Source: a virus
Taxonomy: Duplodnaviria > Heunggongvirae > Uroviricota > Caudoviricetes
IMG/VR virus record: IMGVR_UViG_2698536348_000007
Coordinates: 1-17,256 of that record
Strand: one strand, 5' to 3'
DNA: 17,256 nt
The notes under the pieces are model-generated. The model was not told the origin of the DNA, ran no database searches, and saw only the letters and a list, made by a program, of their open reading frames with translations. Numbering within the stretch: position 1 is the stretch's first letter; each line of letters starts with the position of its first letter. A program made the position numbers and the translations under genes. Shown here piece after piece: positions 1 through 16,363 of this stretch.

Positions 1-2
1 GG

Positions 3-629
3 GGAAAAACGAGTATTTTTAGTCATCCTGTTTACCTCTTTCTCAGGAAGTTTAGTCTCCAGGATTCCCGGGGCGGTTCAGGTCGTTTCATTGAGGAAAA
101 ACACTTCTTCAAACTTGAAGGTGAAACTTTACGTGAGTTCAAGCACAGAGTAGCTTTTAACTACTCTGTGAAAATTGCCCGTAACGTTCGCTCCCTCATC
201 CTCTGGACAGAACGAGGCGCAGCCCGTCACGCCAAAATGCTAGAAACCGATCAGGCGTGGGATGTGTTCGAAAAACTGGAAGACTGCTATTTCAGCCAGT
301 GCGAGAAAAATACTGGCAAACAAGAGAAGAAGCCCAACGGGCTTTCCGCAAAAGAAACAGACAGCCTTGTATGGCTGTGGGATTATGCCAACCGCTCACA
401 GGCATTGTTCCGTGAGTTGTATCCCGCATTAAAACTGATTCAGTCTGGCTATTCCGGCATATGCCACGACTACGGCTATGAGTTCTCGTATATCATCGGG
501 AGGGCGAGGGGCGTTTTAATTAATCACACGCGGGATATAGATATTTATGAGCCTGACGGGCCGACGAACCTTCTGGCATGGGAAAGGCTTAAGAACAAAG
601 AGTTGCCGCCTTCACTGCATCGCTACTGA
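3..629 (+). CDS. 5'-truncated phage early-region protein of unknown function (possibly antirepressor-like); start codon lies upstream of the window
   Basis: Reading frame is open from the window edge (no in-frame stop from position 3 to the TAC-TGA at 627-629). The first in-frame start codon in the window is GTG at 168 and has no Shine-Dalgarno, so the real start is probably upstream. A strong intrinsic terminator follows. Confidence 0.45.
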
Positions 630-646
630 CAATTGACAACTTAACA

Positions 647-670
647 AACCCAGCTTCGGCTGGGTTTTTT
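647..670 (+). terminator. Rho-independent terminator after the first ORF
   Basis: Hairpin aacccagc-ttcg-gctgggtt followed by a T-run (664-670), 18 nt after the stop codon. Confidence 0.6.
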
Positions 671-697
671 ATTGCTGAATTTTCAATATGAGAGGAC

Positions 698-1426
698 ATG
701 ACAATGAATGAGCTGATAAATAGCAGCATCATCAAAATGACCAGCATTGAAATCGCTGAGTTGGTGGGGAGTCGTCCAGATAACGTAAAAATATCAATAG
801 AGCGCCTGGCTGAATCTGGAGTTATTCAACTTCCTGCATTGCAGGTTTTCGAAAAAATCAATAACTTAGGACTGCGCCGTAGTGTCGAGGCTTACGTCTT
901 CGAAGGCGAACAAGGTAAGCGAGACAGCATTATTGTCGTCGCCCAATTGTCGCCGGAATTCACCGCTCGTCTTGTTGACCGTTGGCGAGAGCTTGAAGGG
1001 GCAACCGCGAAAATACCACAAACCTTTTCTGAGGCATTGCGCCTTGCGGCCGACCTTGAAGACCAGAAGGCTGAACTGGAGAAACAGCTTGCTCTCGCAG
1101 CACCTAAAGTTGAGTTTGCCGATCGAGTTGGCGAGGCCAGCGGAATTTTGATTGGAAACTTTGCAAAGGTTGTTGGTATTGGTCCAAACAAACTGTTTGC
1201 GTGGATGCGCGATCACAAAATCCTTATTGCTTCAGGTTCCCGGCGCAATGTGCCAATGCAGGAATATATGGATCGCGGCTATTTCACAGTGAAAGAAACA
1301 GCGGTCAATACAAATCACGGAATACAGATCTCGTTCACCACAAAAATCACCGGGCGTGGTCAACAGTGGCTGACCAGAAAGCCGCTCGATAACGGAATGC
1401 TGAAAGTAACAGGGGAGGCTGCTTAA
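698..1426 (+). CDS. roi: Roi-like phage DNA-binding/antirepressor protein with C-terminal KilAC (ANT) domain
   Basis: 242-aa ORF. The C-terminal segment FAKVVGIGPNKLFAWMRDHKIL...YMDRGYFTVKE...TTKITGRGQQWL matches the KilAC/ANT antirepressor domain as I recall it; position upstream of ybcO-rusA-Q fits Roi of HK022/H-19B-type phages. The ATG at 704 has better spacing to the AGAGGA Shine-Dalgarno than the ATG at 698, so the true start may be 704. Confidence 0.8.
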   Translation: MTMNELINSSIIKMTSIEIAELVGSRPDNVKISIERLAESGVIQLPALQVFEKINNLGLRRSVEAYVFEGEQGKRDSIIVVAQLSPEFTARLVDRWRELEGATAKIPQTFSEALRLAADLEDQKAELEKQLALAAPKVEFADRVGEASGILIGNFAKVVGIGPNKLFAWMRDHKILIASGSRRNVPMQEYMDRGYFTVKETAVNTNHGIQISFTTKITGRGQQWLTRKPLDNGMLKVTGEAA

Positions 1427-1716
1427 TGGCTAACCTACGCAAAGAAGCGCGCGGCAGAGAATGCCAGGTACGGATTTACGGCGTATGCAATGGCAATCCT
1501 GAAACGACAGTTCTGGCACATTACCGGATGGCTGGAATTTGCGGAACGGGAATGAAGCCTGACGACCTGATCGGTGCATGGGCTTGTAGTGACTGCCACG
1601 CGGAGATCGACCGACGCACCCGAATTCTCGACAACAACGACGCCAGACTTTACCACCTGGAAGGCGTGATCAGGACGCAGGCGATATTGCTGAAGGAGGG
1701 GAAGATTAAGTCATGA
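1426..1716 (+). CDS. ybcO: YbcO-like DUF1364 protein (putative nuclease) of the nin region
   Basis: 96-aa ORF, Cys/His-rich (CQVRIYGVCNG...CSDCHAEID), resembles DLP12 YbcO from memory. Start overlaps the roi stop (TAATG) and is preceded by AGGGGAGG. Confidence 0.75.
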   Translation: MANLRKEARGRECQVRIYGVCNGNPETTVLAHYRMAGICGTGMKPDDLIGAWACSDCHAEIDRRTRILDNNDARLYHLEGVIRTQAILLKEGKIKS

Positions 1717-2075
1717 ATGAATATGAGTTTGTGCTTCCCTGGCCGCCGACGGTGAATACCTACTGGCGAAGACGGGGAAGCCAGTACTACATCAGCGATA
1801 AAGGCCAGAAATACCGAAAAGACGTACAGCAAATCATCCGGCAACTCAGATTAGACATTTTCACTAAATCACGACTTCGCATCACAATTATTGCTGAACC
1901 ACCAGATTCCCGCCGTCGCGACCTCGATAACATCCTGAAAGGTTTACTCGACTCTCTTATCCACGCCGGATTTGCGGAAGACGACGAGCAATTCGATGAC
2001 ATTCGCGTAATTCGCGGCGTGAAAGTGCCTGGCGGTAGAGTGGGGATAAAAATCACCGAACTGGAGAACATTTGA
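1713..2075 (+). CDS. rusA: Holliday junction resolvase RusA
   Basis: 120-aa ORF with hallmark RusA motifs (LPWPPTVNTYW..., RRRDLDNILKGLLDSL). Strong Shine-Dalgarno GAAGGAGGGG upstream; start overlaps the ybcO stop (ATGA). Confidence 0.9.
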   Translation: MNEYEFVLPWPPTVNTYWRRRGSQYYISDKGQKYRKDVQQIIRQLRLDIFTKSRLRITIIAEPPDSRRRDLDNILKGLLDSLIHAGFAEDDEQFDDIRVIRGVKVPGGRVGIKITELENI

Positions 2076-2269
2076 TGAATGCTAAAATTCAAACGATACC
2101 TGAATTACTGATCTGCACCAGGGGAAATCAGACAGAAGTCGCCAGAATACTGAACTGCAATCGTGCTACAGTCAGAAAATACATTGATGATAAAGATGCG
2201 AAAAAGCACGCCGTCGTCAATGGCGTCCTTATGGTTCATCGCGGATGGGGTAAAGATACTGATGCGTGA
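2075..2269 (+). CDS. ninH: NinH-like small DNA-binding protein
   Basis: Strong resemblance to lambda NinH ([38 protein letters not shown]). The ORF track starts at TTG 2072; the ATG at 2075 overlaps the rusA stop (TGATG) and is the more likely start. Confidence 0.8.
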
Positions 2270-2696
2270 TATCCGGCAGGTTCTTGAGCGCTGGGGGGCA
2301 TGGGCGGTAAATAACTATGAGGATGTTACATGGTCGCCCATTGCTGCCGGATTTAAGGGACTGATCCCCGAAAAAGTAAAATCACGTCCACAGTGCTGTG
2401 ACGATGATGCGATGGTGATATGCGGGTGCATAGCCCGCCTTTACCGGAACAATCGCGATCTGCATGACTTGCTGGTTGATTACTACGTGTTGGGGGAGAC
2501 GTTCATGGCGCTGGCACGGAAACATGGGTGCTCTGACACCTGTATAGGTAAACGCCTTCACAAAGCGGAGGGGATTGTTGAAGGCATGCTGATGATGCTG
2601 GGAGTGAGGCTTGAGATGGATCGGTATGTTGAGCGTGAATTGCCGGGAGGGAGAAGCTCTGTATTTTATCAGCGAAAAAATAGTTTACGATCGTAA
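2262..2696 (+). CDS. Q: Late-gene antitermination protein Q (phage 21/82 QuuD-like family)
   Basis: From the ATG at 2262 the product ([25 protein letters not shown]...[16 protein letters not shown]...) matches Q/QuuD-type antiterminators from memory. The upstream extension of the track ORF (2163) overlaps ninH and is rejected. Position immediately before the late promoter/lysis region fits. Confidence 0.85.
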
Positions 2697-2720
2697 AAAT
2701 CTGCATATCATGATAAGAGT
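2684..2720 (+). promoter_or_regulatory. Candidate late promoter PR' / Q-utilisation region at the end of Q
   Basis: -35-like TTTACG (2684-2689), about 16-bp spacer, -10-like TATCAT (2706-2711), with a second -10-like GATAAG just downstream. In lambdoid phages PR' sits directly after Q. Hexamer matches are weak, so the exact placement is uncertain. Confidence 0.3.
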
Positions 2721-2741
2721 GGTTACATTGCCACGCAGCCG

Positions 2742-2766
2742 AACCCGCCGATGCGCGGGTTTTTTT
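2742..2766 (+). terminator. Intrinsic terminator 45-70 nt downstream of Q (candidate tR' or Q-gene terminator)
   Basis: GC stem cccgc/gcggg (2744-2748 / 2755-2759) followed by T7 (2760-2766). Confidence 0.5.
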
Positions 2767-2946
2767 GTACCCAGAATCCTGTGAGCTATACGGAAAGTAC
2801 ACAGAAAGGAAGGTACGACCGCAATTAATAACAAAATCTTAAAAATCTCATATGGCACTATTAGTTTTCTAAATATTGTATATTTTAAGTATTGCAGGAT
2901 AACCCTGTAACGAAGTTTGCGTAACAGCATTTTGCTCTACGAGTTT

Positions 2947-2976
2947 GCCAGCCTCCCCTGGTGGCTGGCTTTTTTT
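2947..2976 (+). terminator. Intrinsic terminator (alternative tR' candidate)
   Basis: 7-bp stem gccagcc/ggctggc (2947-2953 / 2963-2969), 9-nt loop, followed by T7 (2970-2976). Confidence 0.55.
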
Positions 2977-3094
2977 GTATCCGTTCAACGGGAATGTTAC
3001 ATACCTCACAATTAAGTCAGTTGAATGTTGTCTGCCCGGATGAGAATTTGTTAGAAAAAACTGCATGGTGAATCCCCCTGAGCGGAGGGGCGAC

Positions 3095-3120
3095 TGGTGA
3101 CGGTATAATCTCTGATTATC
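3095..3120 (+). promoter_or_regulatory. Promoter-like element: consensus -10 TATAAT (3104-3109) with a downstream -10-like repeat GATTAT (3114-3119)
   Basis: Perfect TATAAT hexamer in a non-coding interval; upstream A-tract (3054-3060); -35 is poor. A -10-like repeat just downstream is the architecture of sigma70 promoter-proximal pause sites used by Q antiterminators. Confidence 0.3.
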
Positions 3121-3208
3121 AAAACGAGAATGACGCGGGTTTAGTGGCACCGGGCTGAACTCACCGGGAGGCACCCGGCACCATGCAATGGCACATAGCG
3201 CCACTCTC

Positions 3209-3234
3209 CAGCCCCTCTCCGGAGGGGCTTTCTT
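3209..3234 (+). terminator. Intrinsic terminator-like hairpin closing a candidate ~115-nt small transcript
   Basis: Perfect 7-bp stem gcccctc/gaggggc (3211-3217 / 3222-3228) with tetraloop tccg, followed by tttctt. Confidence 0.45.
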
Positions 3235-3240
3235 ATGGAC

Positions 3241-3268
3241 AAAAAAGCCCGCGCTGGGAGACGCGGGC
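3241..3268 (-). terminator. Minus-strand intrinsic terminator convergent with the previous hairpin
   Basis: On the + strand: A6 (3241-3246) then 7-bp stem gcccgcg/cgcgggc (3247-3253 / 3262-3268). Read on the - strand this is a hairpin followed by U6. Confidence 0.4.
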
Positions 3269-3461
3269 GGCAAGGAATGAACAATGAAACGTGAAGTAAT
3301 ATTTCAGCTGGCGAATAATACCCCATAGTAATCACTCTGCGCAACTGCGCGACCTTTTTCGAATTGCGGGCTGTAGTCTCCCTTCTGCCATTGTCCTGTA
3401 ACTTCCGGACTTCAGCCCGCTCCTTATTTTACTCACAATATTATCCCGGCCGGGAGGATTC

Positions 3462-5372
3462 ATGGCATTTAAACACTATGATGTTGTCAGGGCGGCGTCG
3501 CCGTCAGACCTTGCGAAACGAATAACTCAAAAACTGAAGGAAGGGTGGCAGCCTTATGGTAGTGCGCTGATTTCGACAGCTGGTTATGGTGCGGAGTTCA
3601 TCCAGCCAGTTGTGAGTGAGGGGAGCATCTCATCACCAGAGGAGCCAGGCAACCGTCCGACGACCTCAGCGCCTTCTGTTGCGCCAGAATATTACTATGT
3701 GATCGCGCTTGCTGGTCAGTCCAATGGTATGTCATACGGTGAGGGACTGCCATTACCGGATACATTCGACAGCCCTGATCCACGTATTAAACAGTTAGCG
3801 CGTCGCAGTACGGTGACACCGGGCGGTGCAGCATGCAAATATAACGACATCATTCCGGCGGACCATTGTCTGCATGATGTGCAGGACATGAGCCGTCTTA
3901 ACCATCCGAAAGCGGACCTGTCAAAGGGGCAGTACGGAACCGTGGGGCAGGGGCTGCATATCGCCAAAAAACTGCTGCCGTTTATACCGGCGAATGCGGG
4001 CATTCTGCTGGTTCCGTGCTGTCGTGGTGGTTCAGCGTTCACCACCGGAGCTGATGGCACATACAGTGACGCGAGTGGCGCCTCGGAGAATTCAACCCGC
4101 TGGGGTGTGGACAAGCCGCTGTATAAGGACCTTATCGGTCGAACAAAAGCGGCACTGGAGAAGAACCCGAAAAATGTGCTGTTTGCCGTGGTGTGGATGC
4201 AGGGGGAATTTGATTTTGGCGGTACGCCGGCAAATCATGCCGCACAGTTTGGTGCGCTGGTTGATAAATTCCGTGCAGACCTGGCGGATATGGCAGGCCA
4301 GTGCGTCGGTGGCTCTGCTGGCGGTGTTCCCTGGATATGCGGGGACACGACGTATTTCTGGAAGCAGAAGAACGAATCCACGTACCAGACGGTGTACGGC
4401 AGCTATAAAAATAAAACGGAAAAGAATATCCATTTCGTACCGTTCATGACCGATGAGAACGGGGTGAATGTGCCGACGAACAAACCGGAAGAAGACCCGG
4501 ACATTCCGGGTATCGGTTATTACGGTTCGAAATGGCGTGACAGCTCAGCCACCTGGACGTCACAGGACAGGGCGAGCCATTTCAGTTCATGGGCTCGCCG
4601 TGGGATTATTTCCGACCGTCTGGCAACGGCGATTCTGAGCTGCGCGGGTAAGTCTTCTGCGTTTGTTAATGGTACTGCCGGGGTGGTTGTTCCAGACAGA
4701 CCGGTTACCACCTCAGAGTCTGTAATTTTTTACGATGCCAAAAAAGCTACAGACAATCAGCTGAAACCCTATGGCTGGGACGGTGTGTATGGCAGGCGCA
4801 CACTGGTTGATGACAGCGGCAATAAAGCTCTGCGAATTGAGAAAAATAACAGCGCGAAATCCTGGTCAATGTACTGTGATATTGCTGCAGACAAGGCAAA
4901 ACTTTTACTGGAAAAAGGCGGGGAAATTGCTGTCCGGTTTAAAATCCCCGAAAACGTCAATCTTGAGACAACCAGAAACAAGTATGCCTTTGGTTTGTAC
5001 TGGCGAATAGCGGAATGGCCGGGTGAGGGTGGTGAAGGCCATCTGAGTTCTTTCTTTGTCCAGACAGATAAAGCCAGTATTAATGTTGCATACCATCATA
5101 CAGTTAATCAACAAAAAGAACTTGGCACGTTTGGCGCATTCGACCATGACTGGCATACGCTTGCATTTAAATTTAAGGGCAGTAACAGCATTAATGTTAC
5201 TCCGGTGCTTGATGGTGTGGATGGACAGGCGTTTGACCTGGTGAAATGGGCCAATACTGCTAATGGACTCAACAGGTTTGTCATTACGGATATTACAGGT
5301 AGTGCAGAAACCTACCCTGTACTTATTGATACGGTGGAAGTTAAAGCAAACAAAGCTGGAGCAGCCGCATAA
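3462..5372 (+). CDS. nanS-p: NanS-p-type prophage sialate (9-O-acetyl-N-acetylneuraminate) esterase, YjhS-like; N-terminal DUF1737-like domain plus SASA/SGNH esterase domain
   Basis: 636-aa ORF with GGAGG Shine-Dalgarno 6 nt upstream. N-terminus MAFKHYDVVRAASPSDLAKRITQKLKEGWQPYG and the ALAGQSNGMSYGEG...VVWMQGEFD esterase core match the nanS-p/yjhS family found downstream of stx in Stx phages, from memory. Sits in the Q-to-holin moron locus. Confidence 0.85.
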   Translation: MAFKHYDVVRAASPSDLAKRITQKLKEGWQPYGSALISTAGYGAEFIQPVVSEGSISSPEEPGNRPTTSAPSVAPEYYYVIALAGQSNGMSYGEGLPLPDTFDSPDPRIKQLARRSTVTPGGAACKYNDIIPADHCLHDVQDMSRLNHPKADLSKGQYGTVGQGLHIAKKLLPFIPANAGILLVPCCRGGSAFTTGADGTYSDASGASENSTRWGVDKPLYKDLIGRTKAALEKNPKNVLFAVVWMQGEFDFGGTPANHAAQFGALVDKFRADLADMAGQCVGGSAGGVPWICGDTTYFWKQKNESTYQTVYGSYKNKTEKNIHFVPFMTDENGVNVPTNKPEEDPDIPGIGYYGSKWRDSSATWTSQDRASHFSSWARRGIISDRLATAILSCAGKSSAFVNGTAGVVVPDRPVTTSESVIFYDAKKATDNQLKPYGWDGVYGRRTLVDDSGNKALRIEKNNSAKSWSMYCDIAADKAKLLLEKGGEIAVRFKIPENVNLETTRNKYAFGLYWRIAEWPGEGGEGHLSSFFVQTDKASINVAYHHTVNQQKELGTFGAFDHDWHTLAFKFKGSNSINVTPVLDGVDGQAFDLVKWANTANGLNRFVITDITGSAETYPVLIDTVEVKANKAGAAA

Positions 5373-5377
5373 TTGCT

Positions 5378-5414
5378 AAAAAAAGCCGCCAGCGGCAGGA
5401 ATGGAAGCTGGCGG
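5378..5414 (-). terminator. Minus-strand intrinsic terminator directly after the nanS-p stop
   Basis: + strand: A7 (5378-5384) then 8-bp stem ccgccagc/gctggcgg (5386-5393 / 5407-5414) with a 13-nt loop. No T-run follows on the + strand, so it works as a terminator only for leftward transcription (it may still stabilise the 3' end of nanS-p mRNA). Confidence 0.4.
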
Positions 5415-5511
5415 AGGTAATCCCAATGGAGAATGTAAAGAAAAGATGCTTTCGTACATTGGTTTTTTAAATGAAAACAATTCTCATTGTCAACCATAAC
5501 GGTAAGAAATT

Positions 5512-5694
5512 ATGACATTTATTCATCAGGTGATGCTGTACTTCTGTACGGCGGTCTGTGTGCTGTATCTTCTTTCGGGTGGGTACAGGGCTGTGCGCGA
5601 TTTCTGGTGCAGGCAGATTGATAAAAGGGCCGCTGAGAAAATCAGCGCCAGTCAGTCAGCCGGAAGCAAACCCGAAGAACCCGTTACTCCTTAA
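5512..5694 (+). CDS. Hypothetical small membrane protein (60 aa; one predicted transmembrane helix followed by a charged tail)
   Basis: ORF MTFIHQVMLYFCTAVCVLYLLSGG... Weak Shine-Dalgarno. A 14-codon upstream ORF (5471-5515, MKTILIVNHNGKKL) ends with a TGA overlapping this ATG (ATGA). A promoter-like TTGTCA (5487-5492) lies just upstream. Coding status is uncertain. Confidence 0.3.
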   Translation: MTFIHQVMLYFCTAVCVLYLLSGGYRAVRDFWCRQIDKRAAEKISASQSAGSKPEEPVTP

Positions 5695-5719
5695 CAACCC
5701 CTTTCAGCGAGAAAATCCC

Positions 5720-5965
5720 ATGTCAGAAATCACATCCCTGGTCACTGCAGAGGCAGTGAAGGAAGTCCTGCGCTCTGAAGAAGTCCGGAGCGCACTGAAA
5801 CAGAAACTTCGCCAGAATCTTGAGTCGCGTCTTGATGCAGAAGTGGATGCCATTCTGGATGAGCTGCTGGGCGTAGCAGCGGTTCCTGAGCCGGAAGGTA
5901 TCGCGGGTGACGGGAGTGCTTCAGATGGCGGTGAACCTACACCTGACAGCGACATGATGATGTAA
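5720..5965 (+). CDS. Hypothetical acidic protein (82 aa) upstream of the holin
   Basis: [54 protein letters not shown]... has protein-like helical composition and an acidic C-terminus. Weak GAGA Shine-Dalgarno. The antisense ORF 5704-5955 is low-complexity and rejected. Confidence 0.4.
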
Positions 5966-6041
5966 GCATGCGCAAGGGACCATCGGTGTGTGCCGGTGGT
6001 CTTTATATTGTTGTGAGCTTCCGGATTGCGGGAGACGGGGT

Positions 6042-6257
6042 ATGTACCAGATGGAAAAAATCACAACAGGTGTGTCATACACCACGTCAGCGGTGGGAAC
6101 GGGCTACTGGTTCCTGCAGTTGCTGGACAGGGTTTCCCCGTCTCAGTGGGCGGCAATAGGCGTGCTGGGGAGTCTGCTGTTTGGGCTGCTGACGTACCTG
6201 ACTAACCTGTATTTCAAAATCAAAGAGGACCGGCGTAAGGCGGCGCGGGGAGAGTAA
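6042..6257 (+). CDS. S: Class II holin/antiholin, S21-type (pinholin-like) with dual start motif
   Basis: From the ATG at 6042 the product [71 protein letters not shown] closely resembles phage 21 S (from memory). Two in-frame starts (M1 and M4 at 6051) are typical of holin/antiholin pairs. GGGAGACGGGG Shine-Dalgarno upstream. The longer track ORF from 5988 is rejected. Confidence 0.85.
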
Positions 6258-6261
6258 GCTG

Positions 6262-6795
6262 ATGAGCAGGAAATTCCGCTATGGTTTATCAGCGGTCGTT
6301 CTGGCGCTGATTGCTGCGGGCGCTTCTGCGCCTGAAATCCTCGACCAGTTTCTTGACGAAAAAGAAGGTAACCACACCACGGCATACCGTGATGGTGCGG
6401 GTATCTGGACTATCTGCCGCGGTGCCATCCTGGTGGATGGCAAACCTGTCGTTCCGGGCATGAAGTTGTCGAAGGAAAAATGCGACCGGGTTAACGCCAT
6501 TGAGCGTGATAAGGCGCTGGCATGGGTGGAGAAAAACATCAGAGTGCCACTGACCGAACCGCAGAAAGCGGGCATCGCGTCATTCTGTCCGTACAACATC
6601 GGGCCTTCGAAATGCTTCACCTCAACGTTTTACCGGAAACTGAACGCAGGAGACCGGAAAGGTGCATGTGCTGAAATCCGCCGATGGATATATGACGGCG
6701 GCAGGGACTGTCGGAACCGCTCAAATAACTGTTACGGGCAGGTATCGCGGCGTGACCAGGAGAGCGCGCTGGCGTGCTGGAGTATCGACAGATAA
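6262..6795 (+). CDS. R: SAR endolysin (R21-type, T4-lysozyme-like muramidase, GH24)
   Basis: 177-aa ORF with a Gly/Ala-rich N-terminal signal-anchor-release segment (YGLSAVVLALIAAGASAPE) and catalytic signature EGNHTTAYRDGAGIWTICRG (E...D...T). Immediately follows the holin; GGGGAGAG Shine-Dalgarno. Confidence 0.9.
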   Translation: MSRKFRYGLSAVVLALIAAGASAPEILDQFLDEKEGNHTTAYRDGAGIWTICRGAILVDGKPVVPGMKLSKEKCDRVNAIERDKALAWVEKNIRVPLTEPQKAGIASFCPYNIGPSKCFTSTFYRKLNAGDRKGACAEIRRWIYDGGRDCRNRSNNCYGQVSRRDQESALACWSIDR

Positions 6796-6879
6796 GCAGA
6801 ATATTCTGCTGAAAAATGCCGTTGACCAACGCGAACGGATAACACGAAATCCTGCGAACTGGCAAAATTTAAGTGAGTA

Positions 6880-6926
6880 AAAGTAAAAACCCCGTTTGTT
6901 GGCAGCAAGCGGGGTTTTGTGTTTCT
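6880..6926. terminator. Bidirectional intrinsic terminator between endolysin and Rz
   Basis: 9-bp stem ccccgtttg/caagcgggg (6890-6898 / 6906-6914, one G-U pair) with 7-nt loop, flanked by an A-rich tract upstream (6880-6889) and a T-rich tract downstream (6915-6926). Confidence 0.5.
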
Positions 6927-7015
6927 GACCTTGAATAAGGCAAGGGAGAAATTATGGGTAGGGAGGTTCTTTCCCTGTGAGGAAGTATAAAAGATTCTTT
7001 CTGAGGTTGTCCATT

Positions 7016-7129
7016 ATGAAAGGCATTGAGGTGGAGACGCCAGCAAGTCTGGATTTAACAAGAGCGGCAGCTTTTGCCATTCGTATTGTGGCAATTGCTG
7101 TTCTGGTCTGGGCAATCCGTTGGTGGTGA
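7016..7129 (+). CDS. Hypothetical 37-aa C-terminally membrane-anchored peptide, translationally coupled to Rz
   Basis: ORF MKGIEVETPASLDLTRAAAFAIRIVAIAVLVWAIRWW, not in the supplied track (below 60 aa). GAGG 8 nt upstream of the ATG. Its TGA (7127-7129) is 1 nt before the Rz ATG (7131). Coding status unproven. Confidence 0.3.
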   Translation: MKGIEVETPASLDLTRAAAFAIRIVAIAVLVWAIRWW

Positions 7130-7130
7130 T

Positions 7131-7589
7131 ATGAATCGTGTGCTGTATGGCGTGCTTATTGTCCTGCTGCTTGGTTGTGGATCGCTGTGGCTGGCAACAG
7201 ACCATTACCGTGATAACGCCATCACCTACAAAGAGCAGCGAGATGATGCGAAGACAAAACTCAGCCAGGCGAACGCCACCATTGCTGACATACAGCAGCG
7301 CCAGCGTGATGTTGCTGCACTCGATGCCAGATACACCAGGGAGCTTGCTGATGCTAACGCGACTATTGAAAGTCTCCGTGCTGATGTTTCTGCTGGGCGT
7401 AAGCGCCTGCAAGTCGCCGCCACCTGTGCAAAGTCAACGACCGGAGCCAGCGGCATGGGCGATGGAGAAAGCTCAGGACTTACAGCAGATGCTGAACTCA
7501 ATTATTACCGTCTCCGAAGTGGAATCGACAAGATAACCGCGCAGGTTAACTACCTGCAGGAGTACATCAGGATGCAATGCCTCGATTAA
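7131..7589 (+). CDS. Rz: Rz i-spanin (inner-membrane spanin subunit)
   Basis: From the ATG at 7131: MNRVLYGVLIVLLLGCGSLWLATDHYRDNAITYKEQRDDAK...RDVAALDARYTRELADA closely parallels lambda Rz (N-terminal TM helix, then HYRDNAITYK). The track ORF start at 7074 is an upstream extension without support. Confidence 0.85.
   Translation: MNRVLYGVLIVLLLGCGSLWLATDHYRDNAITYKEQRDDAKTKLSQANATIADIQQRQRDVAALDARYTRELADANATIESLRADVSAGRKRLQVAATCAKSTTGASGMGDGESSGLTADAELNYYRLRSGIDKITAQVNYLQEYIRMQCLD
7351..7536 (+). CDS. Rz1: Rz1 o-spanin lipoprotein, embedded in the +1 frame of Rz
   Basis: ATG at 7351 with GGGAG 8 nt upstream. Product MLTRLLKVSVLMFLLGVSACKSPPPVQSQRPEPAAWAMEKAQ... has a lipoprotein signal peptide, lipobox-like VSAC and the proline-rich mature region typical of Rz1. 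Entirely inside Rz, as in lambda. Confidence 0.7.
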   Translation: MLTRLLKVSVLMFLLGVSACKSPPPVQSQRPEPAAWAMEKAQDLQQMLNSIITVSEVESTR

Positions 7590-7593
7590 CAGA

Positions 7594-7618
7594 GCCAGCT
7601 CAATCGCTGGCCTTTTTT
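7594..7618 (+). terminator. Intrinsic terminator after Rz/Rz1
   Basis: Stem gccagc/gctggc (7594-7599 / 7606-7611) with 6-nt loop, followed by T6 (7613-7618). Confidence 0.6.
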
Positions 7619-7669
7619 ATGAGGAGAGATATAACCTGAATCAATGCCAGTGCATTATCAACAAATGGA

Positions 7670-8251
7670 TCACTGGGTAAGCTCGTTTGGTTTTAAATGT
7701 CCGTCGAGAATCAGATTGTGATTTTCCCGATGCAGAACCAGTGTGCCCATATAATCAGGTTTAAATCTCCATCCATTCATTTTTTTTGCAATTCTGGACA
7801 GACAGTGATTATGTGTGAAAATCACAGTAACATGATCTGATTTTGATATTTTAAGGATATTATTTACTGCGTTATCATCACATGTCGATATGTCCGGAAT
7901 AGTTGCTGTCTTACCTCCCGAAAAAAAAGTGGCTGTCTGCATTGTTCGGAGTGTGTCTGTAGAATAGAGACTGTAGTATGGAAACATTCTTCTGAATTTA
8001 TCTCCATATTGTTGAGCTTTGTTAGCTCCGTTTACTGTGATTCCCTCATGTGCTGAAAGACATATTCTTTGGGAGCGATCGCATCTTTCCCCATGCCGGA
8101 TGAGAAAAATAATGGGATGTTTCTGGTTAATCTCAGTGACATCGTTCACATCAAGTCTGACTGGAGTTCTTACAATGTATATGATGGATACAGAAACGAT
8201 TATGACAAGTAAAAATATAAGAAGAGATTTTGTTAGCGTTTGATTTAACAT
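7670..8251 (-). CDS. Ais/PmrG-family lipopolysaccharide core heptose(II)-phosphate phosphatase homologue (histidine-phosphatase superfamily) with N-terminal signal/anchor; prophage cargo gene
   Basis: Minus-strand ORF. Motifs IRHGERCDRS (RHG catalytic motif), GITV.G, LYSTDTLRT.QTA, IFTHNHCL and FKPDY align with E. coli Ais as I recall it. Hydrophobic N-terminus LLIFLLVIIVSVSIIYIV. The start at 8251 (MLNQTL..., AAGGGA Shine-Dalgarno 7 nt upstream) is preferred over the track start at 8284. Opposite orientation to the flanking phage genes, in the position lambda uses for bor. Confidence 0.75.
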   Translation of the reverse strand: MLNQTLTKSLLIFLLVIIVSVSIIYIVRTPVRLDVNDVTEINQKHPIIFLIRHGERCDRSQRICLSAHEGITVNGANKAQQYGDKFRRMFPYYSLYSTDTLRTMQTATFFSGGKTATIPDISTCDDNAVNNILKISKSDHVTVIFTHNHCLSRIAKKMNGWRFKPDYMGTLVLHRENHNLILDGHLKPNELTQ

Positions 8252-8305
8252 ATAAATTCCCTTGTCTGTGTTGAAAATGGGCATTATTATGCGTAAATCT
8301 TATGT

Positions 8306-8319
8306 AATCCTTAAGGATT
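8306..8319. promoter_or_regulatory. Perfect 14-bp palindrome AATCCTTAAGGATT in the promoter region of the Ais-like gene
   Basis: Exactly self-complementary, 22-35 bp upstream of the first in-frame ATG (8284) of the minus-strand gene, next to a CATAAT -10-like hexamer. Contains CTTAAG half-sites reminiscent of PmrA/BasR boxes (CTTAAT-like), which regulate chromosomal ais. Confidence 0.3.
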
Positions 8320-8853
8320 GTCTGACGTGGTGATATGACGCGAAATACAGTGGGTACACAGAATGCTGTGAACAACGACGAAATGGGCATTGGTAGCGGT
8401 ACTGGTGCTTTTTTTATTGGTTGGTTGCTCAAGTCTTGATAAAGCGCGTTAGCTTTTTGGTATTGCCTCTTAGGTCTGTAAAATTGCCGACGGTGTCCGG
8501 CAGTGCATGCAGGGCTGATCGTCTATGAGAACAGAATATATTGCTAAAAATGAAGTGTGCGTCAATGCTTATAAAGCATGCAATTCTGTATTTCTAACTA
8601 TTCAATAAAATAAATTCTTTCTGTCGCAGTGAATATACAAATGTTGATCAGCGCTCGATGTGGCGACGGGTTTCTATATCAGGAGACTTTGGCATTTATC
8701 CGCGAGGCAGCCTATCTGGTGCTGTAGTGGAATGAAGCGGATATAACCTAAATAAGGTTAAACATTAATCAGACATGGCTCTGCTGTGTGAAATCTGAAA
8801 ATTTACAGCAGTCATTGTGCATCAGTTTTTAACAGAGAACGTCAGAAGGTGAC

Positions 8854-9669
8854 ATGGCAAAGCTGGACTGGAAAAAGCTGGAGCAGGCATTTCGACGCGA
8901 ACATGTCAAAACCGGCATAAAGCTTCAGGACTGGTGCCGTCAGAACAATATCAGTTATGACACGGCTCGGCGGTACATTAAACTGCGCAAACACTCCCCC
9001 AGAAATACAGAGAAAAGTGCGCAGAAAAATGCGCAAATTGATGATCAAAAAAGTGCGCAGAAATCTGACGGCAACTCCAGTCATGACGAGCCTTCAGGCG
9101 ATGATGGTTGTGATGAAAAATGCGCAAATTTGGCAGAAACGAAACGGACTCGTGGTTCCAGACTTTTGCCACCTTCAAATGCTTTTTCTCAGCGTAACAC
9201 CCACGCCGTCAGACACCGTGGATACGCGAAGTATCTCGAGGCAGATAACCTCATAGATGATGCAGTCGGAATGGAACTTGCCGATGAACTGGTGTTTACC
9301 CGGGCCCGCGCACTTTCAGTAACAGGAACACTGAAAAAAATGTTCGCCGACCTGAAAGAGGCGGCTGACGTGGAAACCCGCGTTGCTCTGTACGACAAAA
9401 TACTCAAAGCTGAACAGGCTCTTGACCGGAATATTGCCCGTATCGAGTCAATTGAACGCTCATTGCTGACGCTGGACGTTCTGGCTGAAACAGCACCAAA
9501 ACTTCGTGCTGACCGGGAAAGAACCAACGCTGCCAGAGATAAACTCAGAGCGGAAACCGATATTCTGACCAGCCAGCGTCGGGGCGTTGTTACGCCTGTC
9601 AGTGACATCGTGTCATCGCTGCATGAAATGAGTAATTCGGGGAGACTGGATGACATTCCGGAAGAATGA
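8854..9669 (+). CDS. Terminase small subunit (putative)
   Basis: 271-aa ORF immediately upstream of, and overlapping, the large terminase. N-terminal HTH-like segment (KLQDWCRQNNISYDTARRYIK) and coiled-coil C-terminus are typical of small terminases. Assigned mainly by synteny. Confidence 0.65.
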   Translation: MAKLDWKKLEQAFRREHVKTGIKLQDWCRQNNISYDTARRYIKLRKHSPRNTEKSAQKNAQIDDQKSAQKSDGNSSHDEPSGDDGCDEKCANLAETKRTRGSRLLPPSNAFSQRNTHAVRHRGYAKYLEADNLIDDAVGMELADELVFTRARALSVTGTLKKMFADLKEAADVETRVALYDKILKAEQALDRNIARIESIERSLLTLDVLAETAPKLRADRERTNAARDKLRAETDILTSQRRGVVTPVSDIVSSLHEMSNSGRLDDIPEE

Positions 9670-11356
9670 ACCGCGATGTGATGAACCGTCAGAAATGACA
9701 GAGGCCGAACAACGTCTGTTCATCATGACTAAACTGAGCAATCCCTGGTGGCGGCTCAATCATCTCTACAAGATACAGAACGAAAAAGGTGAGCTGGTCA
9801 CCTTCAGAATGCGACCGGCGCAGCGCCAGTTGTTCCGGAGCATGCACAATAAAAATATTATCCTGAAAGCACGCCAGCTGGGGTTTTCCACGGCCATTGA
9901 TATTTATCTTCTCGACCAGGCATTATTCATACCGCATCTCAAATGCGGGATTGTCGCTCAGGATAAACAGGCTGCCAGTGAAATTTTCCGCACCAAAATT
10001 GCTGTACCGTTCGATCATCTTCCTGACTGGCTGAGAGCCTCATTCACCATCGTTGAACGTCGTAGCGGAGCCAGCGGTGGCTATATCCTGTTTGGGCACG
10101 GCTCGAGTATCCAGGTGGCAACCTCATTCCGTTCAGGTACGGTGCAGCGCCTGCATATCTCAGAGCACGGCAAAATTTGCGCAAAATATCCGGCTAAGGC
10201 GAAAGAGCTGCGAACCGGTACACTTAATGCCGTCTCTGATGAGTGCATTATTTTTGATGAATCCACTGCTGAAGGTGTGGGTGGTGATTTTTACGAGATG
10301 AGTAACCGGGCACAGGAAATCACTGCATCAGGGCTGGCGCTGACGCCACAGGATTATAAATTCCATTTTTACGCCTGGTGGCAGGATCTCAAATACAGCG
10401 CCAGAGTGCCGGAAAGCGGACTTAAGCTGTCACGGGAAAAAACAGCGTATTTTTCTGCGGTTGAAAAAGCAATGAACATCACGCTTACCGATGAGCAGAA
10501 ACACTGGTACATCTGCAAGGAAACTGAACAGCGTGAGGAAATGAAGCAGGAGTTTCCCTCAACACCACAGGAGGCGTTTCTGACGTCCGGACGACGGGTG
10601 TTCAGTGCGGAAAGCACGCTGCAGGCAGAGTCATTCTGTTCGCCACCGCTGATTGTTTATGACATTGAACCGGTTACAGGAACGAAGACCAAAGCGCAGT
10701 CTCTGCGTGACGGGAATAAAGCCGAACAGCACCGGACGCTGATGAATTATCTGCTGGTCTGGGAGCTACCGGATCCGGATGAAGAGTATGTATGCGGAGC
10801 GGATACCGCTGAGGGGCTGGAGCACGGAGACCGCTCATCGCTGGATATCATCAGATGTAGTAATGGTGAGCAGGTAGCCCACTGGTTTGGTCATCTCGAT
10901 GCGGAGCTTTTCGCTCATCTCATTGCGCAGGTCTGCCGTATGTACAACAACGCGTTTGTGGGGCCGGAGCGTAACAATCACGGACATGCCGTTATCCTGA
11001 AACTCCGGGAACTCTATCCGACGCGTTATATCTACAACGAACAGCACCTTGACCAGGCATATGACGACGATACGCCCCGTCTTGGCTGGCTGACAACCCG
11101 CCAGAGTAAACCGGTCCTGACTGAGGGAATGAAAACGCTGCTGAATAACGGCCTGTCGGGGATCCGCTGGACGGGCACATTATCAGAAATGAACACCTAC
11201 GTTTATGACGCGAAAGGCTCCATGAATGCACAGGAAGGCTGTTTTGATGATCAGCTTATGAGCTACATGATTGCCCAGGAGATGCGCGCCAGAATGCCGG
11301 TGAGGGTAAGACAGAAAACGGATAAACGCAGAACCACACACTGGATGGCTCACTGA
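9650..11356 (+). CDS. Terminase large subunit
   Basis: 568-aa ORF with GGGGAG Shine-Dalgarno 5 nt upstream of the ATG at 9650, overlapping the end of the small-subunit gene. Followed directly by the portal (stop/start overlap TGATG). Alternative starts at 9695 and 9725 cannot be excluded. Confidence 0.8.
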   Translation: MTFRKNEPRCDEPSEMTEAEQRLFIMTKLSNPWWRLNHLYKIQNEKGELVTFRMRPAQRQLFRSMHNKNIILKARQLGFSTAIDIYLLDQALFIPHLKCGIVAQDKQAASEIFRTKIAVPFDHLPDWLRASFTIVERRSGASGGYILFGHGSSIQVATSFRSGTVQRLHISEHGKICAKYPAKAKELRTGTLNAVSDECIIFDESTAEGVGGDFYEMSNRAQEITASGLALTPQDYKFHFYAWWQDLKYSARVPESGLKLSREKTAYFSAVEKAMNITLTDEQKHWYICKETEQREEMKQEFPSTPQEAFLTSGRRVFSAESTLQAESFCSPPLIVYDIEPVTGTKTKAQSLRDGNKAEQHRTLMNYLLVWELPDPDEEYVCGADTAEGLEHGDRSSLDIIRCSNGEQVAHWFGHLDAELFAHLIAQVCRMYNNAFVGPERNNHGHAVILKLRELYPTRYIYNEQHLDQAYDDDTPRLGWLTTRQSKPVLTEGMKTLLNNGLSGIRWTGTLSEMNTYVYDAKGSMNAQEGCFDDQLMSYMIAQEMRARMPVRVRQKTDKRRTTHWMAH

Positions 11357-13500
11357 TGAAAAATGAAACTAATACCATGGCGACGAAAAACGACAACGGA
11401 GCCACGCCGCGTTTTTCTCAGCGCCAGTTACAGGCGCTTTGTTCTGATATTGACAGTCAGCCTAAATGGCGCGATGCCGCAAACAAGGCCTGTGCGTATT
11501 ACGATGGTGACCAGTTGCCACCAGAAGTTCTTCAGGTACTGAAAGATCGCGGTCAGCCGATGACCATCCATAACCTCATCGCGCCTACCGTTGATGGTGT
11601 TCTGGGTATGGAGGCCAAAACGCGGACTGATCTGGTGGTGATGTCAGACGAGCCAGATGATGAAACTGAAAAACTGGCTGAAGCTATTAATGCTGAATTT
11701 GCCGATGCATGCCGCCTTGGCAATATGAATAAAGCCCGCTCTGATGCCTATGCGGAACAAATCAAGGCGGGGCTCAGCTGGGTGGAGGTCAGACGGAACA
11801 GCGATCCGTTCGGGCCTGAGTTTAAGGTGTCTACTGTCAGCCGGAATGAAGTGTTCTGGGACTGGCTCAGCCGGGAAGCTGATTTAAGTGACTGCCGCTG
11901 GCTGATGCGCCGCCGCTGGATGGATACCGATGAGGCAAAAGCCACATTCCCGGGAATGGCTCAGGTTATCGATTATGCCATTGATGACTGGCGTGGTTTT
12001 GTCGATACCACGGTTACTGAAGGCCAGCCCAGTCCGTTGATGAGTGCATGGGAAGAGTATCAGTCATGGGATCGTAAGGAGAACGAATGGCTTCAGCGTG
12101 AACGCCGTCGTGTGCTGCTTCAGGTGGTTTATTACCGTACATTCGAGCGTCTTCCGGTGATTGAACTCAGTAATGGACGGGTGGTGGCCTTTGATAAAAA
12201 TAATCTGATGCATGCGGTGGCTGTGGCATCCGGGCGGGTGCAGGTGAGAGTCGGGCGGGTAAGTCGTATTCGTGAAGCCTGGTTTGTGGGACCGCACTTT
12301 ATTGTGGATCGCCCCTGCAGTGCGCCGCAGGGGATGTTCCCGCTGGTTCCCTTCTGGGGATACCGGAAGGATAAAACCGGGGAGCCTTACGGGCTGATTT
12401 CCCGGGCCATTCCGGCACAGGATGAGGTGAATTTTCGTCGTATAAAACTGACGTGGTTGCTTCAGGCCAAACGCGTGATTATGGACGAGGATGCCACCCA
12501 GTTGTCAGACAACGAGCTGATGGAGCAGATCGAGCGTCCGGATGGCATTATTAAACTGAATCCGGCCCGAAAAAATCAGAAAAGCGTTGCTGATGTTTTC
12601 CGGGTTGAACAGGATTTTCAGGTTGCCAGCCAGCAGTTTCAGGTCATGCAGGAGTCGGAAAAACTTATCCAGGACACGATGGGGGTTTATTCCGCATTTC
12701 TCGGGCAGGATTCAAATGCATCGTCCGGCGTGGCGATCAGCAACCTGGTGGAGCAGGGAGCCACAACCCTTGCCGAAATCAACGATAACTACCAGTTTGC
12801 CTGCCAGCAGGTGGGAAGGCTGTTGCTCGCTTATCTTCTCGATGGCCTGAAAAAGCGGCGTAATCATGCGGTGGTGATTAATCGTGATGATCGCCAGCGT
12901 CGCCAGACCATTGTTCTCAATGCTGAAGGTGATAATGGTGAACTGACCAATGATATTTCAAGGTTAAATACACATATTGCGCTGGCTCCTGTTCAGCAGA
13001 CACCGGCGTTTAAGGCACAGCTTGCACAGCGAATGTCAGAGGTTATTCAGGGGCTGCCACCTCAGGTGCAGGCCGTCGTGCTCGACCTGTGGGTTAACCT
13101 TCTGGATGTGCCGCAGAAACAGGAATTTGTCGAACGTATTCGTGCGGCGCTGGGGACACCAAAATCACCGGATGAGATGACCCCGGAAGAGCAGCAGGCC
13201 GCTCAGCAGCAACAGGCCCAGGAGCAGCAACAACAGGAACTGCAGATGCGCGAAATGGCAGGCCGGGTGGCTAAACTGGAAGCAGAAGCTGCCAGGGCAC
13301 AGGCAGCTGCGCAACGGGATAATGCTGGCGCACAACGGGATGTCGCCGCGGCACAGGGACAGCGTTATGTGGATGCGCTCAACCAGGCGCATACGGCAGA
13401 AATCATTACCGGCATACAGAATATGGAACAGGAGCAGGAAGCTCTTCAGCAACAGATGCTACATACACTACAACAGCGGATGCATGAATTGCCGCTATGA
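11356..13500 (+). CDS. Portal protein (P22-like, with C-terminal Gln/Ala-rich helical extension)
   Basis: 714-aa ORF following terminase. Size and C-terminal coiled-coil (EEQQAAQQQQAQEQQQQELQMREMAGRVAKLEAEAARAQAAAQ) resemble the P22 gp1 portal barrel; synteny terminase-portal-scaffold-coat. Confidence 0.8.
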   Translation: MKNETNTMATKNDNGATPRFSQRQLQALCSDIDSQPKWRDAANKACAYYDGDQLPPEVLQVLKDRGQPMTIHNLIAPTVDGVLGMEAKTRTDLVVMSDEPDDETEKLAEAINAEFADACRLGNMNKARSDAYAEQIKAGLSWVEVRRNSDPFGPEFKVSTVSRNEVFWDWLSREADLSDCRWLMRRRWMDTDEAKATFPGMAQVIDYAIDDWRGFVDTTVTEGQPSPLMSAWEEYQSWDRKENEWLQRERRRVLLQVVYYRTFERLPVIELSNGRVVAFDKNNLMHAVAVASGRVQVRVGRVSRIREAWFVGPHFIVDRPCSAPQGMFPLVPFWGYRKDKTGEPYGLISRAIPAQDEVNFRRIKLTWLLQAKRVIMDEDATQLSDNELMEQIERPDGIIKLNPARKNQKSVADVFRVEQDFQVASQQFQVMQESEKLIQDTMGVYSAFLGQDSNASSGVAISNLVEQGATTLAEINDNYQFACQQVGRLLLAYLLDGLKKRRNHAVVINRDDRQRRQTIVLNAEGDNGELTNDISRLNTHIALAPVQQTPAFKAQLAQRMSEVIQGLPPQVQAVVLDLWVNLLDVPQKQEFVERIRAALGTPKSPDEMTPEEQQAAQQQQAQEQQQQELQMREMAGRVAKLEAEAARAQAAAQRDNAGAQRDVAAAQGQRYVDALNQAHTAEIITGIQNMEQEQEALQQQMLHTLQQRMHELPL

Positions 13501-13520
13501 ATATCCTGAACTTAACGGAA

Positions 13521-13544
13521 CCCCGTCATCGTACGGGGTTTTTT
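13521..13544 (+). terminator. Intrinsic terminator/attenuator between portal and scaffold genes
   Basis: 6-bp stem ccccgt/acgggg (13521-13526 / 13533-13538) with 6-nt loop, then T6 (13539-13544), 21 nt after the portal stop. Confidence 0.5.
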
Positions 13545-13657
13545 GTCTCCGGAGATAAGCGTTCCGGGAGCGGTGCGCTTATTCGCGGGGGCAGCGATAA
13601 GCCTTATTTACTCAACCATTCGGATCTGTCCGATAAACAGACCATGCGGAGTTATTT

Positions 13658-14665
13658 ATGGATTTTGAATTTACGGGTGAAGAAACCCCGGAACAACTGG
13701 AAAAAATGCTGGAAGGGCTTGGAGATGTGGATATTGACGGTCACGAACAGGACGGCGTGACAGAGGCCGCCACAGAAAATCATGCGGATGAGGCAGCACA
13801 GACACAGACGGGCGATAACACTGCGGCACCGACGCCGGATGCCAGTGCTGAGCAGACGCAGGACGTGAAGGAGCCGGAGGCGAAGGGTGTGCTCACCCGC
13901 GATGGTAAACACGTCATTCCCTATGAAGTCCTTGAGGCTGAACGTTCCGGTAAGCAGCGGGCCGAACAGGAAGCCGCACTTCTTCGGGGACAGATAGCCG
14001 AAGAAAAACGCCTGGTTGAACTGCTGACGTCTCAGATCCACCAGGCCGGTATGAAACCCGCACCGTTACCGGAAAACGAAAAAATCTCTGATGAGAAGAT
14101 TGCCCGTATCAGGGAGATGTATCCGGAAATTGGCGACGCGGTGGCTTCGCTTATCCGTAAAAATAACTATCTCCAGTCCCGTGTTCAGCAATCAGCACAG
14201 CAGGCAGAAGGTCATGGTGGTGAGGATTTATCACCGGTTCTTGATGCAATGAATGACGTGCCGGTGCTGAAAACGTGGCAGAACTCCGATCCGGATCGCT
14301 TCTCGGTTGCCGTATCCATCGACGGGAAGCTCCAGAATGACCCCGCATGGAAAGACAAACCGCTCACTGAACGTTTCGCCGAAGTGGCCCGCCGTACGCA
14401 GCTCGCTTTCGGTGAAGCCAGTGAGCCGCCTTCTGATGACAAGGCAGACAACACGGATATCCGGAAAACGGCGGAAGAAAAAGTGAAAGCCGCTGAACGG
14501 GAGATGGCAGTGCCTGCTTCCCCGTCAGAGCTTGGCAACACGGCTTCCGTCGGAACCGGTGATAATTTTGAACGGTTACTTGGTGCTTCTCATTCAGAGG
14601 CAGAGGCGATTATGCGCGGTATGACGAATGCTGAAATAGACGCGCTTCTGGAGAAGCTCGGGTAA
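13658..14665 (+). CDS. Scaffolding protein (putative)
   Basis: 335-aa highly acidic, helix/coiled-coil-type ORF between portal and major capsid genes; GCGGAG Shine-Dalgarno 6 nt upstream. Assigned by composition and synteny. Confidence 0.65.
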   Translation: MDFEFTGEETPEQLEKMLEGLGDVDIDGHEQDGVTEAATENHADEAAQTQTGDNTAAPTPDASAEQTQDVKEPEAKGVLTRDGKHVIPYEVLEAERSGKQRAEQEAALLRGQIAEEKRLVELLTSQIHQAGMKPAPLPENEKISDEKIARIREMYPEIGDAVASLIRKNNYLQSRVQQSAQQAEGHGGEDLSPVLDAMNDVPVLKTWQNSDPDRFSVAVSIDGKLQNDPAWKDKPLTERFAEVARRTQLAFGEASEPPSDDKADNTDIRKTAEEKVKAAEREMAVPASPSELGNTASVGTGDNFERLLGASHSEAEAIMRGMTNAEIDALLEKLG

Positions 14666-14688
14666 CTTACTGAAGGAGAACTGAAGTA

Positions 14689-15903: not shown

Positions 15904-15919
15904 TTTTTCCTTTCCTCAT

Positions 15920-15942: not shown

Positions 15943-15957
15943 CAGGAGTCATTAATT

Positions 15958-16350: not shown

Positions 16351-16363
16351 TATAAACCTTCCG

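Follow-up and report, generated by a model that had tools for sequence, protein, structure and literature searches.

An Ais/PmrG-family phosphatase gene with a candidate PmrA/BasR promoter in the lysis-packaging slot of a lambdoid prophage

In phage lambda, bor is a lysogenic-conversion gene for a lipoprotein that lies after Rz on the opposite strand, between the lysis and the packaging genes. In the prophages of Escherichia coli O104:H4, Bor and Lom have been described as morons (PMC3486847). Among chromosomally encoded envelope enzymes, PmrG is described as a PmrA-activated enzyme that dephosphorylates Hep(II) (PMC8129183, PMC4312571), and BasR binds the ais promoter (PMC12419081). Here we analyze a gene on the IMG/VR virus record IMGVR_UViG_2698536348_000007 (positions 1 to 17,256; this whole stretch of 17,256 nucleotides (nt) is referred to as the window). 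Reading of the sequence had suggested that the gene encodes an Ais/PmrG-like phosphatase acting on the heptose phosphate of the lipopolysaccharide (LPS) core and occupies the position of bor, antisense to the late operon. We now consider it probable, with considerable room for doubt, that this is a moron of a lambdoid prophage whose product is an exported LPS-core phosphatase of the Ais/PmrG type, placed under the control of PmrA/BasR.

The gene appears in the open reading frame (ORF) listing of the window as a minus-strand ORF of 204 amino acids (aa) at 7670-8284. RefSeq annotation confirms that it is located between Rz and the terminase genes and runs antisense to the late genes. Its features are listed here in window coordinates; codons and residues are numbered on the 193-aa product.

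7670..8251, minus strand: coding sequence (CDS), stop codon included, for the Ais-like histidine phosphatase of 193 aa; the product matches RefSeq WP_000934362.1 exactly
8171..8227, minus strand: hydrophobic signal peptide or signal-anchor, codons 9-27, predicted from a Kyte-Doolittle mean of 3.06 and an AlphaFold2 helix at residues 2-26
8072..8098, minus strand: catalytic Arg-His motif RHGERCDRS, codons 52-60, with the invariant C57 inside it
7805..7819, minus strand: FTHNH, codons 145-149, with the second conserved histidine of the superfamily, H147 (from alignments and direct reading of the codons)
8258..8263, minus strand: Shine-Dalgarno-like AAGGGA, 6 nt 5' of ATG 8251, read directly from the sequence
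8252..8284, minus strand: in-frame upstream extension MPIFNTDKGIY, included in the ORF as originally drawn and probably untranslated

The translation contains LIRHGERCDRS, IFTHNHCL and FKPDY, the strings on which the assignment to Ais had been based, and all three are also found in translated K-12 Ais. Protein searches bear this assignment out. BLASTP aligned the product with K-12 Ais at 43% identity (E 7e-44) and with a Salmonella PmrG-like protein at 45%, and the NCBIfam subfamily model NF011945 was matched from position 14 to 199 of 201 with 201.9 bits against a cut-off of 142 (E 7.4e-60). The Pfam model His_Phos_1 (PF00300) scored 28.7 bits against a gathering score of 21.7, the N-terminal third alone being aligned. 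The family is small, with 115 of 1.84 billion cluster representatives matching at E <= 1e-3 and nine at E <= 1e-30; PHROGs holds no family for the protein and a sequence search of PDB chains returned no match.

The active site is conserved. R52, H53, R56, C57, D58, R59, S60, C64, Q105, C150 and Y167 show no variation in either of two alignments, with 32 and 37 sequences. R102, which sits in the motif RTMQTA, and H147 of THNH are invariant in the 37-sequence set and are each lost once in the 32-sequence set, in the frameshift-like variant P0068 or P0066. The canonical Arg-His pair, the second arginine and the second histidine are thus all conserved, and the histidine of the RHG string, which had been proposed to be catalytic, is retained as H53. 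The fold agrees with this. An AlphaFold2 model built on the family alignment (mean predicted local distance difference test score 92, predicted template modelling (TM) score 0.84) consists of a helix at residues 2-26 followed by an alpha/beta domain, and Foldseek matched it to 226 PDB chains at E <= 1e-3. The top 50 matches were all histidine phosphatases or proteins with such a domain, at a probability of 1.00, which confirms the expected histidine-phosphatase fold; the matches include the C-terminal domain of MutT1, RosC, phosphoserine phosphatases, PGAM5 and SixA. Sequence and predicted structure together place the protein in branch 1 of the histidine phosphatase superfamily, in the Ais/PmrG subfamily, as a SixA-like small enzyme.

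The hydrophobic stretch at residues 9-27 agrees with the signal or anchor that had been noticed at the N-terminus, and the catalytic domain is likely exported, with the signal either cleaved or serving as a membrane anchor. An AXA-type cleavage motif, which K-12 Ais has, was not found in the N-terminus, and the protein may therefore stay membrane-bound. Three cysteines, C57, C64 and C150, are invariant in the family alignments. The originally drawn ORF is real, with a start that is probably misplaced. ATG 8284-8282 has no Shine-Dalgarno sequence and overlaps a -10-like hexamer described below, whereas ATG 8251, the second methionine, follows AAGGGA and is the RefSeq start, with which the starts of the homologues align. 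On these grounds the true start is most likely ATG 8251, 33 nt inside the ORF. A similar spurious N-terminal extension is also present in a plasmid homologue.

All prophage homologues found at 50-85% identity occupy the same place, between the last lysis gene (endolysin or Rz) and the small terminase gene, on the opposite strand. This slot is constant across at least seven combinations of lysis and terminase modules, as seen from the flanks of the loci compared (L numbers).

Window: 933W-type flanks
L003: lysozyme/Rz and Nu1/GpA
L005, L008: GH108 endolysin, and ParB/TAGT and Terminase_2/6
L007, L009: GH108 and Nu1/GpA
L012: GH108, and HNH and Terminase_4/TerL
L029, L036, L042, L047: M15 peptidase, with or without Rz, and DUF1441/GpA

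In the window the flanking genes are an Rz-type 'lysis protein' (RefSeq) at 7131-7589 and the small terminase gene at 8854-9669. Homologues were found on 21 viral contigs of IMG/VR and in one of 50,697 deposited phage genomes, that of Escherichia phage GER2 (L002, MG710528). The GenBank record of GER2 annotates a 91-aa fragment and a hypothetical ORF on the opposite strand. Truncation of the GER2 gene, as the 91-aa CDS would suggest, was ruled out: the gene (L002 6271-6852) encodes an intact protein of 193 aa with the single substitution V27A, and the 91-aa call is therefore wrong. A truly frameshifted allele is carried by the viral contig L032.

Pairwise ratios of nonsynonymous to synonymous substitution (dN/dS) between the window gene and eight prophage lineages range from 0.15 to 0.25, with synonymous sites near saturation, and indicate that the gene is maintained by purifying selection. 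In a neighbour-joining tree of the catalytic domains the prophage copies form one clade with fimbria-linked copies and copies flanked by insertion sequences (IS). The phage gene is therefore not a recent capture of host ais, since chromosomal Ais/PmrG and IncI TraG fall outside this clade.

The gene is part of an island of foreign composition. Its guanine plus cytosine (GC) content is 0.375, that of 7590-8853 is 0.392 and that of the rest of the window 0.513, so that the earlier impression of an AT-rich region was borne out by calculation.

7583..8699, unstranded: AT-rich island (moron cassette) of about 1.1 kb, delimited by blastn borders against phage P13374 and by GC content

The island is absent from P13374, the Stx2a phage of the O104:H4 outbreak. 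In P13374 (L039) the slot between Rz and terS is filled by a gene for a Rha-like regulator on the forward strand, and the slot therefore behaves as a site at which 933W-like phages swap unrelated cargo. A composition unlike that of the flanks and a cassette that is present or absent between otherwise homologous phages are what is expected of a moron, and they support the proposal that the gene is a horizontally acquired one.

Upstream of the start the same strand carries two elements that resemble a PmrA/BasR-dependent promoter.

8299..8315, minus strand: PmrA/BasR-box-like repeat CTTAAG-GATTA-CATAAG, one mismatch to YTTAAK-N5-YTTAAK, pointing toward the gene
8283..8288, minus strand: -10-like hexamer AATAAT, exactly 10 nt downstream of the box

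Where PMC10927774 introduces the PmrA repeat, citing Aguirre et al. 2000, it is written YTTAAK-N5-YTTAAK; PMC3973317 gives CTTAAG-N5-xTTAAT, and the second half-site of the natural pbgP box is CCTAAG (PMC3973317). The box lies 64 nt upstream of ATG 8251 and is the sole site in the window with at most one mismatch. Three BasR/PmrA-dependent promoters of K-12 share the layout of box, 10-nt spacer and hexamer with the phage gene: arnB (CTTAAGGTTAAGTTAAT-N10-TAAAAT), eptA (CTTAAGGTTGGCTTAAT-N10-GAGCAT) and pmrR (CTTAAGGTTCACTTAAT-N10-CATACT). The geometry is conserved in six of nine lineages of the prophage clade, among them the following, given with protein identity to the window gene.

L028-30, L042 (72-76%): box as in the window, N10, 5/6 match to the -10 hexamer
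L009/L010/L012, L031, L044 (64-67%): perfect box, N10, 5/6 match to the -10 hexamer
L034-38, L046, L047 (50-53%): GTTAAG-N5-CTTAAT, N10, 5/6 match to the -10 hexamer

In the last of these groups the flanking promoter DNA can no longer be aligned to that of the window. A box followed by N10 and at least five of six matches to the -10 hexamer is expected by chance at 5e-5 to 1e-3 per composition-matched upstream sequence of 130 nt. The box was not found in the non-prophage members inspected, namely IncI traG, the copy on a plasmid with a serine protease autotransporter (SPATE), the AraC-adjacent and fimbria-adjacent copies and the IS-truncated Salmonella copy. In L005 and L043 the putative PmrA site has a variant form: an array of three half-site-like hexamers with 11 bp spacing, CTCAAG-N5-ATTAAT-N5-CATAAG, is located about 45-78 nt upstream of the start and is followed by a perfect TATAAT. 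We regard the conserved geometry as good comparative evidence, short of a demonstration, for a PmrA/BasR-dependent promoter with a predicted transcript start near 8276.

If the promoter works as predicted, the moron would be transcribed independently of the phage late promoter in the lysogen, where the late operon is expected to be silent. Fe3+, Al3+ or mild acid would activate BasS/BasR, and phosphorylated PmrA/BasR would bind 8315-8299 and use the -10 element at 8288-8283 to start near 8276. A promoter bound by PmrA/BasR implies that the phage gene would be induced together with host arn, eptA and ais. The transcript would run leftward through the ORF to a hairpin downstream of it.

7594..7611, unstranded: GC-rich hairpin GCCAGC-N6-GCTGGC, in the interval that separates the stop codons of Rz and the phosphatase gene

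The T-run of this hairpin is good on the plus strand and weak on the minus strand, and with T-runs on both strands it is possibly a bidirectional terminator that serves both converging transcripts. By means of the N-terminal helix the catalytic domain would reach the periplasmic side of the inner membrane, where it might remain tethered; the conserved cysteines would suit such an oxidising compartment. There the enzyme would hydrolyse a phosphomonoester of the LPS inner core, most likely Hep(II) phosphate as in the PmrG reaction, thereby lowering the negative charge of the surface and the binding of Fe3+ and Al3+. Resistance to polymyxin or serum and the exclusion of other phages, as first proposed, are conjectural consequences.

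Several observations weigh against this account. With respect to the promoter, the second half-site, CATAAG, deviates from the consensus at position 2. The first half-site is degenerate in L003, the lineage of the closest homologue (83% identity), and in L005, as in L043, the box within the three tandem half-sites has two mismatches. Chance would yield 0.8 such sites over the full window, so the box by itself is not significant and the argument rests on spacing, orientation and conservation. With respect to the enzyme, hydrophobicity is the sole basis of the predicted topology, the score of 113.2 bits for the PmrG equivalog model NF052369 is below the cut-off of 170, and the separation of the mobile-element clade from chromosomal Ais/PmrG means that the substrate could differ. 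The description as Ais/PmrG-like consequently stands for the subfamily and fails for the PmrG equivalog, and in view of the low score and the separate clade we infer, rather than read off, a Hep(II)-phosphate substrate. Finally, chromosomal ais is present in 5413 of 5426 complete E. coli genomes, and a duplicate activity therefore needs a rationale.

What use a second enzyme would have beside resident ais is indeed the main uncertainty, and the leading rival account invokes either a different substrate or tethering to the membrane. According to this explanation, which we hold to be rather improbable without dismissing it, a protein of the same fold in the same compartment removes a different envelope phosphate, for example Hep(I)-phosphate/pyrophosphoethanolamine, the lipid A 1- or 4'-phosphate or the LpxT 1-diphosphate, and its effect adds to that of resident Ais. 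The identity of 43-45% to Ais/PmrG, the sub-threshold equivalog score, the separate clade, an N-terminus that may keep the protein in the membrane for want of an AXA-type site and the presence of ais in nearly all hosts are all in line with it. Yet the family-invariant residues, including the surroundings of the active site, are common to the phage protein and Ais/PmrG, and nothing points to any particular alternative substrate. We continue to favour the Ais/PmrG-type reaction on the LPS core.

Members of the family outside prophages raise a second alternative. Homologues are present on about 1,440 plasmids, most of them being traG of IncI plasmids; traG of the IncI-gamma/K1 plasmid pN441 (L048 2381-2962) belongs to the Ais family, is about 45% identical and has a signal peptide and no PmrA box. 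The plasmid pESBL (pESBL-EA11, O3K_25647) of the O104:H4 outbreak strain carries a traG that is dispensable for transfer (PMC4288162). With chromosomal ais, the prophage copy and plasmid traG, the outbreak strain has three paralogues. Elsewhere, Ais-like genes were seen to follow directly on two genes for AraC-family regulators, to lie 3' of a chaperone-usher fimbrial operon and a gene for an EAL-domain protein, or to be placed near a CS1/Tcf-type fimbrial operon in Salmonella or beside a SPATE autotransporter (loci inspected: L052 1281-3941; L054 1-5585; L050 1-5582; L045; L013-L016). Annotation and synteny thus suggest that the family may be linked to surface appendages or adhesin loci.

From these neighbourhoods one might suppose that the phage protein is an AfrS-like accessory factor that promotes expression or assembly of fimbriae or pili, either directly or via envelope signalling. 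A truncated homologue was named 'transcriptional activator AfrS' by its submitter, a name that could not be verified, and members lie beside chaperone-usher/CS1-type fimbrial operons and AraC-type regulators and, as traG, in the IncI tra/pil region (PMC4288162). However, the name is a single submitter's annotation on the frameshift-like 150-aa variant P0066, the strict conservation of the catalytic residues speaks for enzymatic activity, a domain that is exported would hardly serve as a transcription factor, fimbrial genes do not adjoin the prophage copies and IncI TraG is not needed for transfer. We consider such a role very unlikely for the phage gene.

A broader and decidedly speculative possibility is that the Ais-like genes of mobile elements, that is the prophage copies between lysis and terminase genes, the fimbria- or AraC-adjacent copies and perhaps IncI traG, constitute a functionally distinct clade of membrane-tethered LPS-core phosphatases whose remodelling of the inner core serves the element. 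The prophage versions would then have evolved a PmrA/BasR promoter that places a phage gene under the host's sensor of metals and acid. If so, the element might benefit by blocking superinfecting phages or conjugative-pilus adhesins that read the core, or by easier assembly of appendages.

The island also holds the remains of a second envelope gene.

8348..8515, plus strand: decayed small lipoprotein gene with three in-frame stops (tblastn 62-68% identity, E 1e-10 to 2e-14)

The element around it, 8332-8588, is found at 74-79% nucleotide identity in L005, L009, L028 and L031. Intact versions of the gene in related prophages (L009 4644-4826, L006 5569-5724, L043 4817-4999) encode a lipoprotein of 51-60 aa with the lipobox LVGC and are placed between the Ais-like gene and the terminase. 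By sequence comparison, then, the small lipoprotein gene travels with the Ais-like cassette in related prophages. L009 has two copies of the lipoprotein-bearing element. Neither the lipoprotein nor two other small proteins of the junction matched Pfam. A terminator-like hairpin at 8385-8410 and a 34-aa ORF at 8335-8439 were dropped as features because both are inside the decayed gene.

Window positions 7400-8900 are 100% identical to the chromosome of E. coli O104:H4 2011C-3493 and to 26 other complete genomes, and the region is present at >=99% identity in 43 of the 5426 complete E. coli genomes; in these 43 and in 10 IMG/VR contigs the phosphatase ORF is intact and 99-100% identical. That the gene is silent or decaying AT-rich cargo, repressed for instance by H-NS and without current function in the lysogen, is the least probable of the alternatives, since the low GC content, the neighbouring lipoprotein pseudogene, the frameshifted allele of L032 and the restriction of the island to these 43 genomes are set against an intact and nearly invariant ORF, a dN/dS of about 0.2 across the clade with conserved catalytic residues, and promoter elements kept despite saturated synonymous sites.

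By sequence, the host element matches an stx-less, 933W-like lambdoid prophage of E. coli O104:H4. A Stx-phage-like but stx-less prophage of O104:H4 has been called phage E (PMC3486847), and from the description in that paper we infer that the prophage analyzed here is phage E. The RefSeq order of neighbouring genes is antiterminator Q, an esterase of the SASA family, holin and lysozyme, followed beyond the phosphatase gene by terminases, portal and an N4-gp56-type capsid protein. Between the genes for Q and the esterase we observed a full-length match to the Rfam small RNA STnc100 (RF02076; 3035-3240, plus strand; 165 bits against a gathering score of 47). In Stx phages this interval is where tRNAs and stx are encoded. 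Here the whole window proved free of tRNA genes, and stx is also absent from the region between Q and the esterase.

The gene and its product name are already present in RefSeq and in the GER2 record, and members of its 90% cluster occur on well over a thousand contigs. We found no paper discussing a phage-borne Ais, and the O104:H4 prophage study PMC3486847, which lists lom and bor, does not include the Ais-like gene among its morons. What appears to be new is that the slot is constant in prophages of many types, that mobile-element copies form a clade of their own and that a putative PmrA-type promoter is conserved. As a moron of the Ais/PmrG family the gene is a fairly ordinary lysogenic-conversion gene and opens no long-standing question. 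To our knowledge, prophage-encoded changes of LPS are well known for the O-antigen and hardly documented for the inner core. If the enzyme is active, a prophage in the lineage of the 2011 O104:H4 outbreak, like its relatives in Shigella and in further E. coli, would bring a second activity, inducible by stress, that makes the core less negatively charged, with a bearing on metal tolerance, binding of cationic peptides and phage adsorption. The predicted promoter would be a simple case of a phage gene that has joined a two-component regulon of its host, and the lysis-packaging slot, a known moron hot spot, gains one further type of cargo.

Among described systems, minimal phosphatases of the SixA type (PDB 1ujb, 2rfl, 3f2i) are among the closest structural matches of the protein when TM scores are normalised to target length (0.61-0.66). 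They share with it a compact domain of about 150 residues and the same catalytic Arg-His and His. In contrast to the phage protein, SixA is cytoplasmic and acts on the phosphohistidine of ArcB, and sequence identity is 12-18%. Lambda Bor offers the same architecture, a gene for a small envelope protein that lies in the lysis-packaging slot and runs against the late operon. As an outer-membrane lipoprotein, Bor differs from the histidine phosphatase encoded here, and the two are unrelated in sequence and fold: a Pfam scan of the phage protein gave just His_Phos_1 and a sub-threshold DUF4869, and no homology to Bor. The 'bor position' of the original prediction is thus apt as an analogy of place and not as homology. 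TraG of IncI1/IncI-gamma plasmids (R64-type tra region) is a mobile-borne member of the same family with about 45% identity over 75% of the protein, but its gene is part of the transfer operon, where traF and traH flank it, lacks a PmrA box and branches with non-prophage sequences in the tree.

Chromosomal Ais/PmrG is the nearest described relative. Both are members of NF011945 with about 200 aa and an N-terminal export signal (predicted here), and both have the motifs RHxERCDRS, RTxQ(T/S)A and FTHNHCL and the conserved cysteines. They differ in that the phage protein is 43-45% identical, falls under the PmrG equivalog cut-off and belongs to the separate mobile-element clade; in that K-12 ais adjoins arnB of the arn (pmrHFIJKLM) operon whereas the phage gene lies in a prophage between Rz and terS; and in that the hydrophobic N-terminus of the phage protein has no AXA motif, unlike that of K-12 Ais. 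A PmrA-type box, as judged from sequence, is nevertheless located in the promoter region of both.

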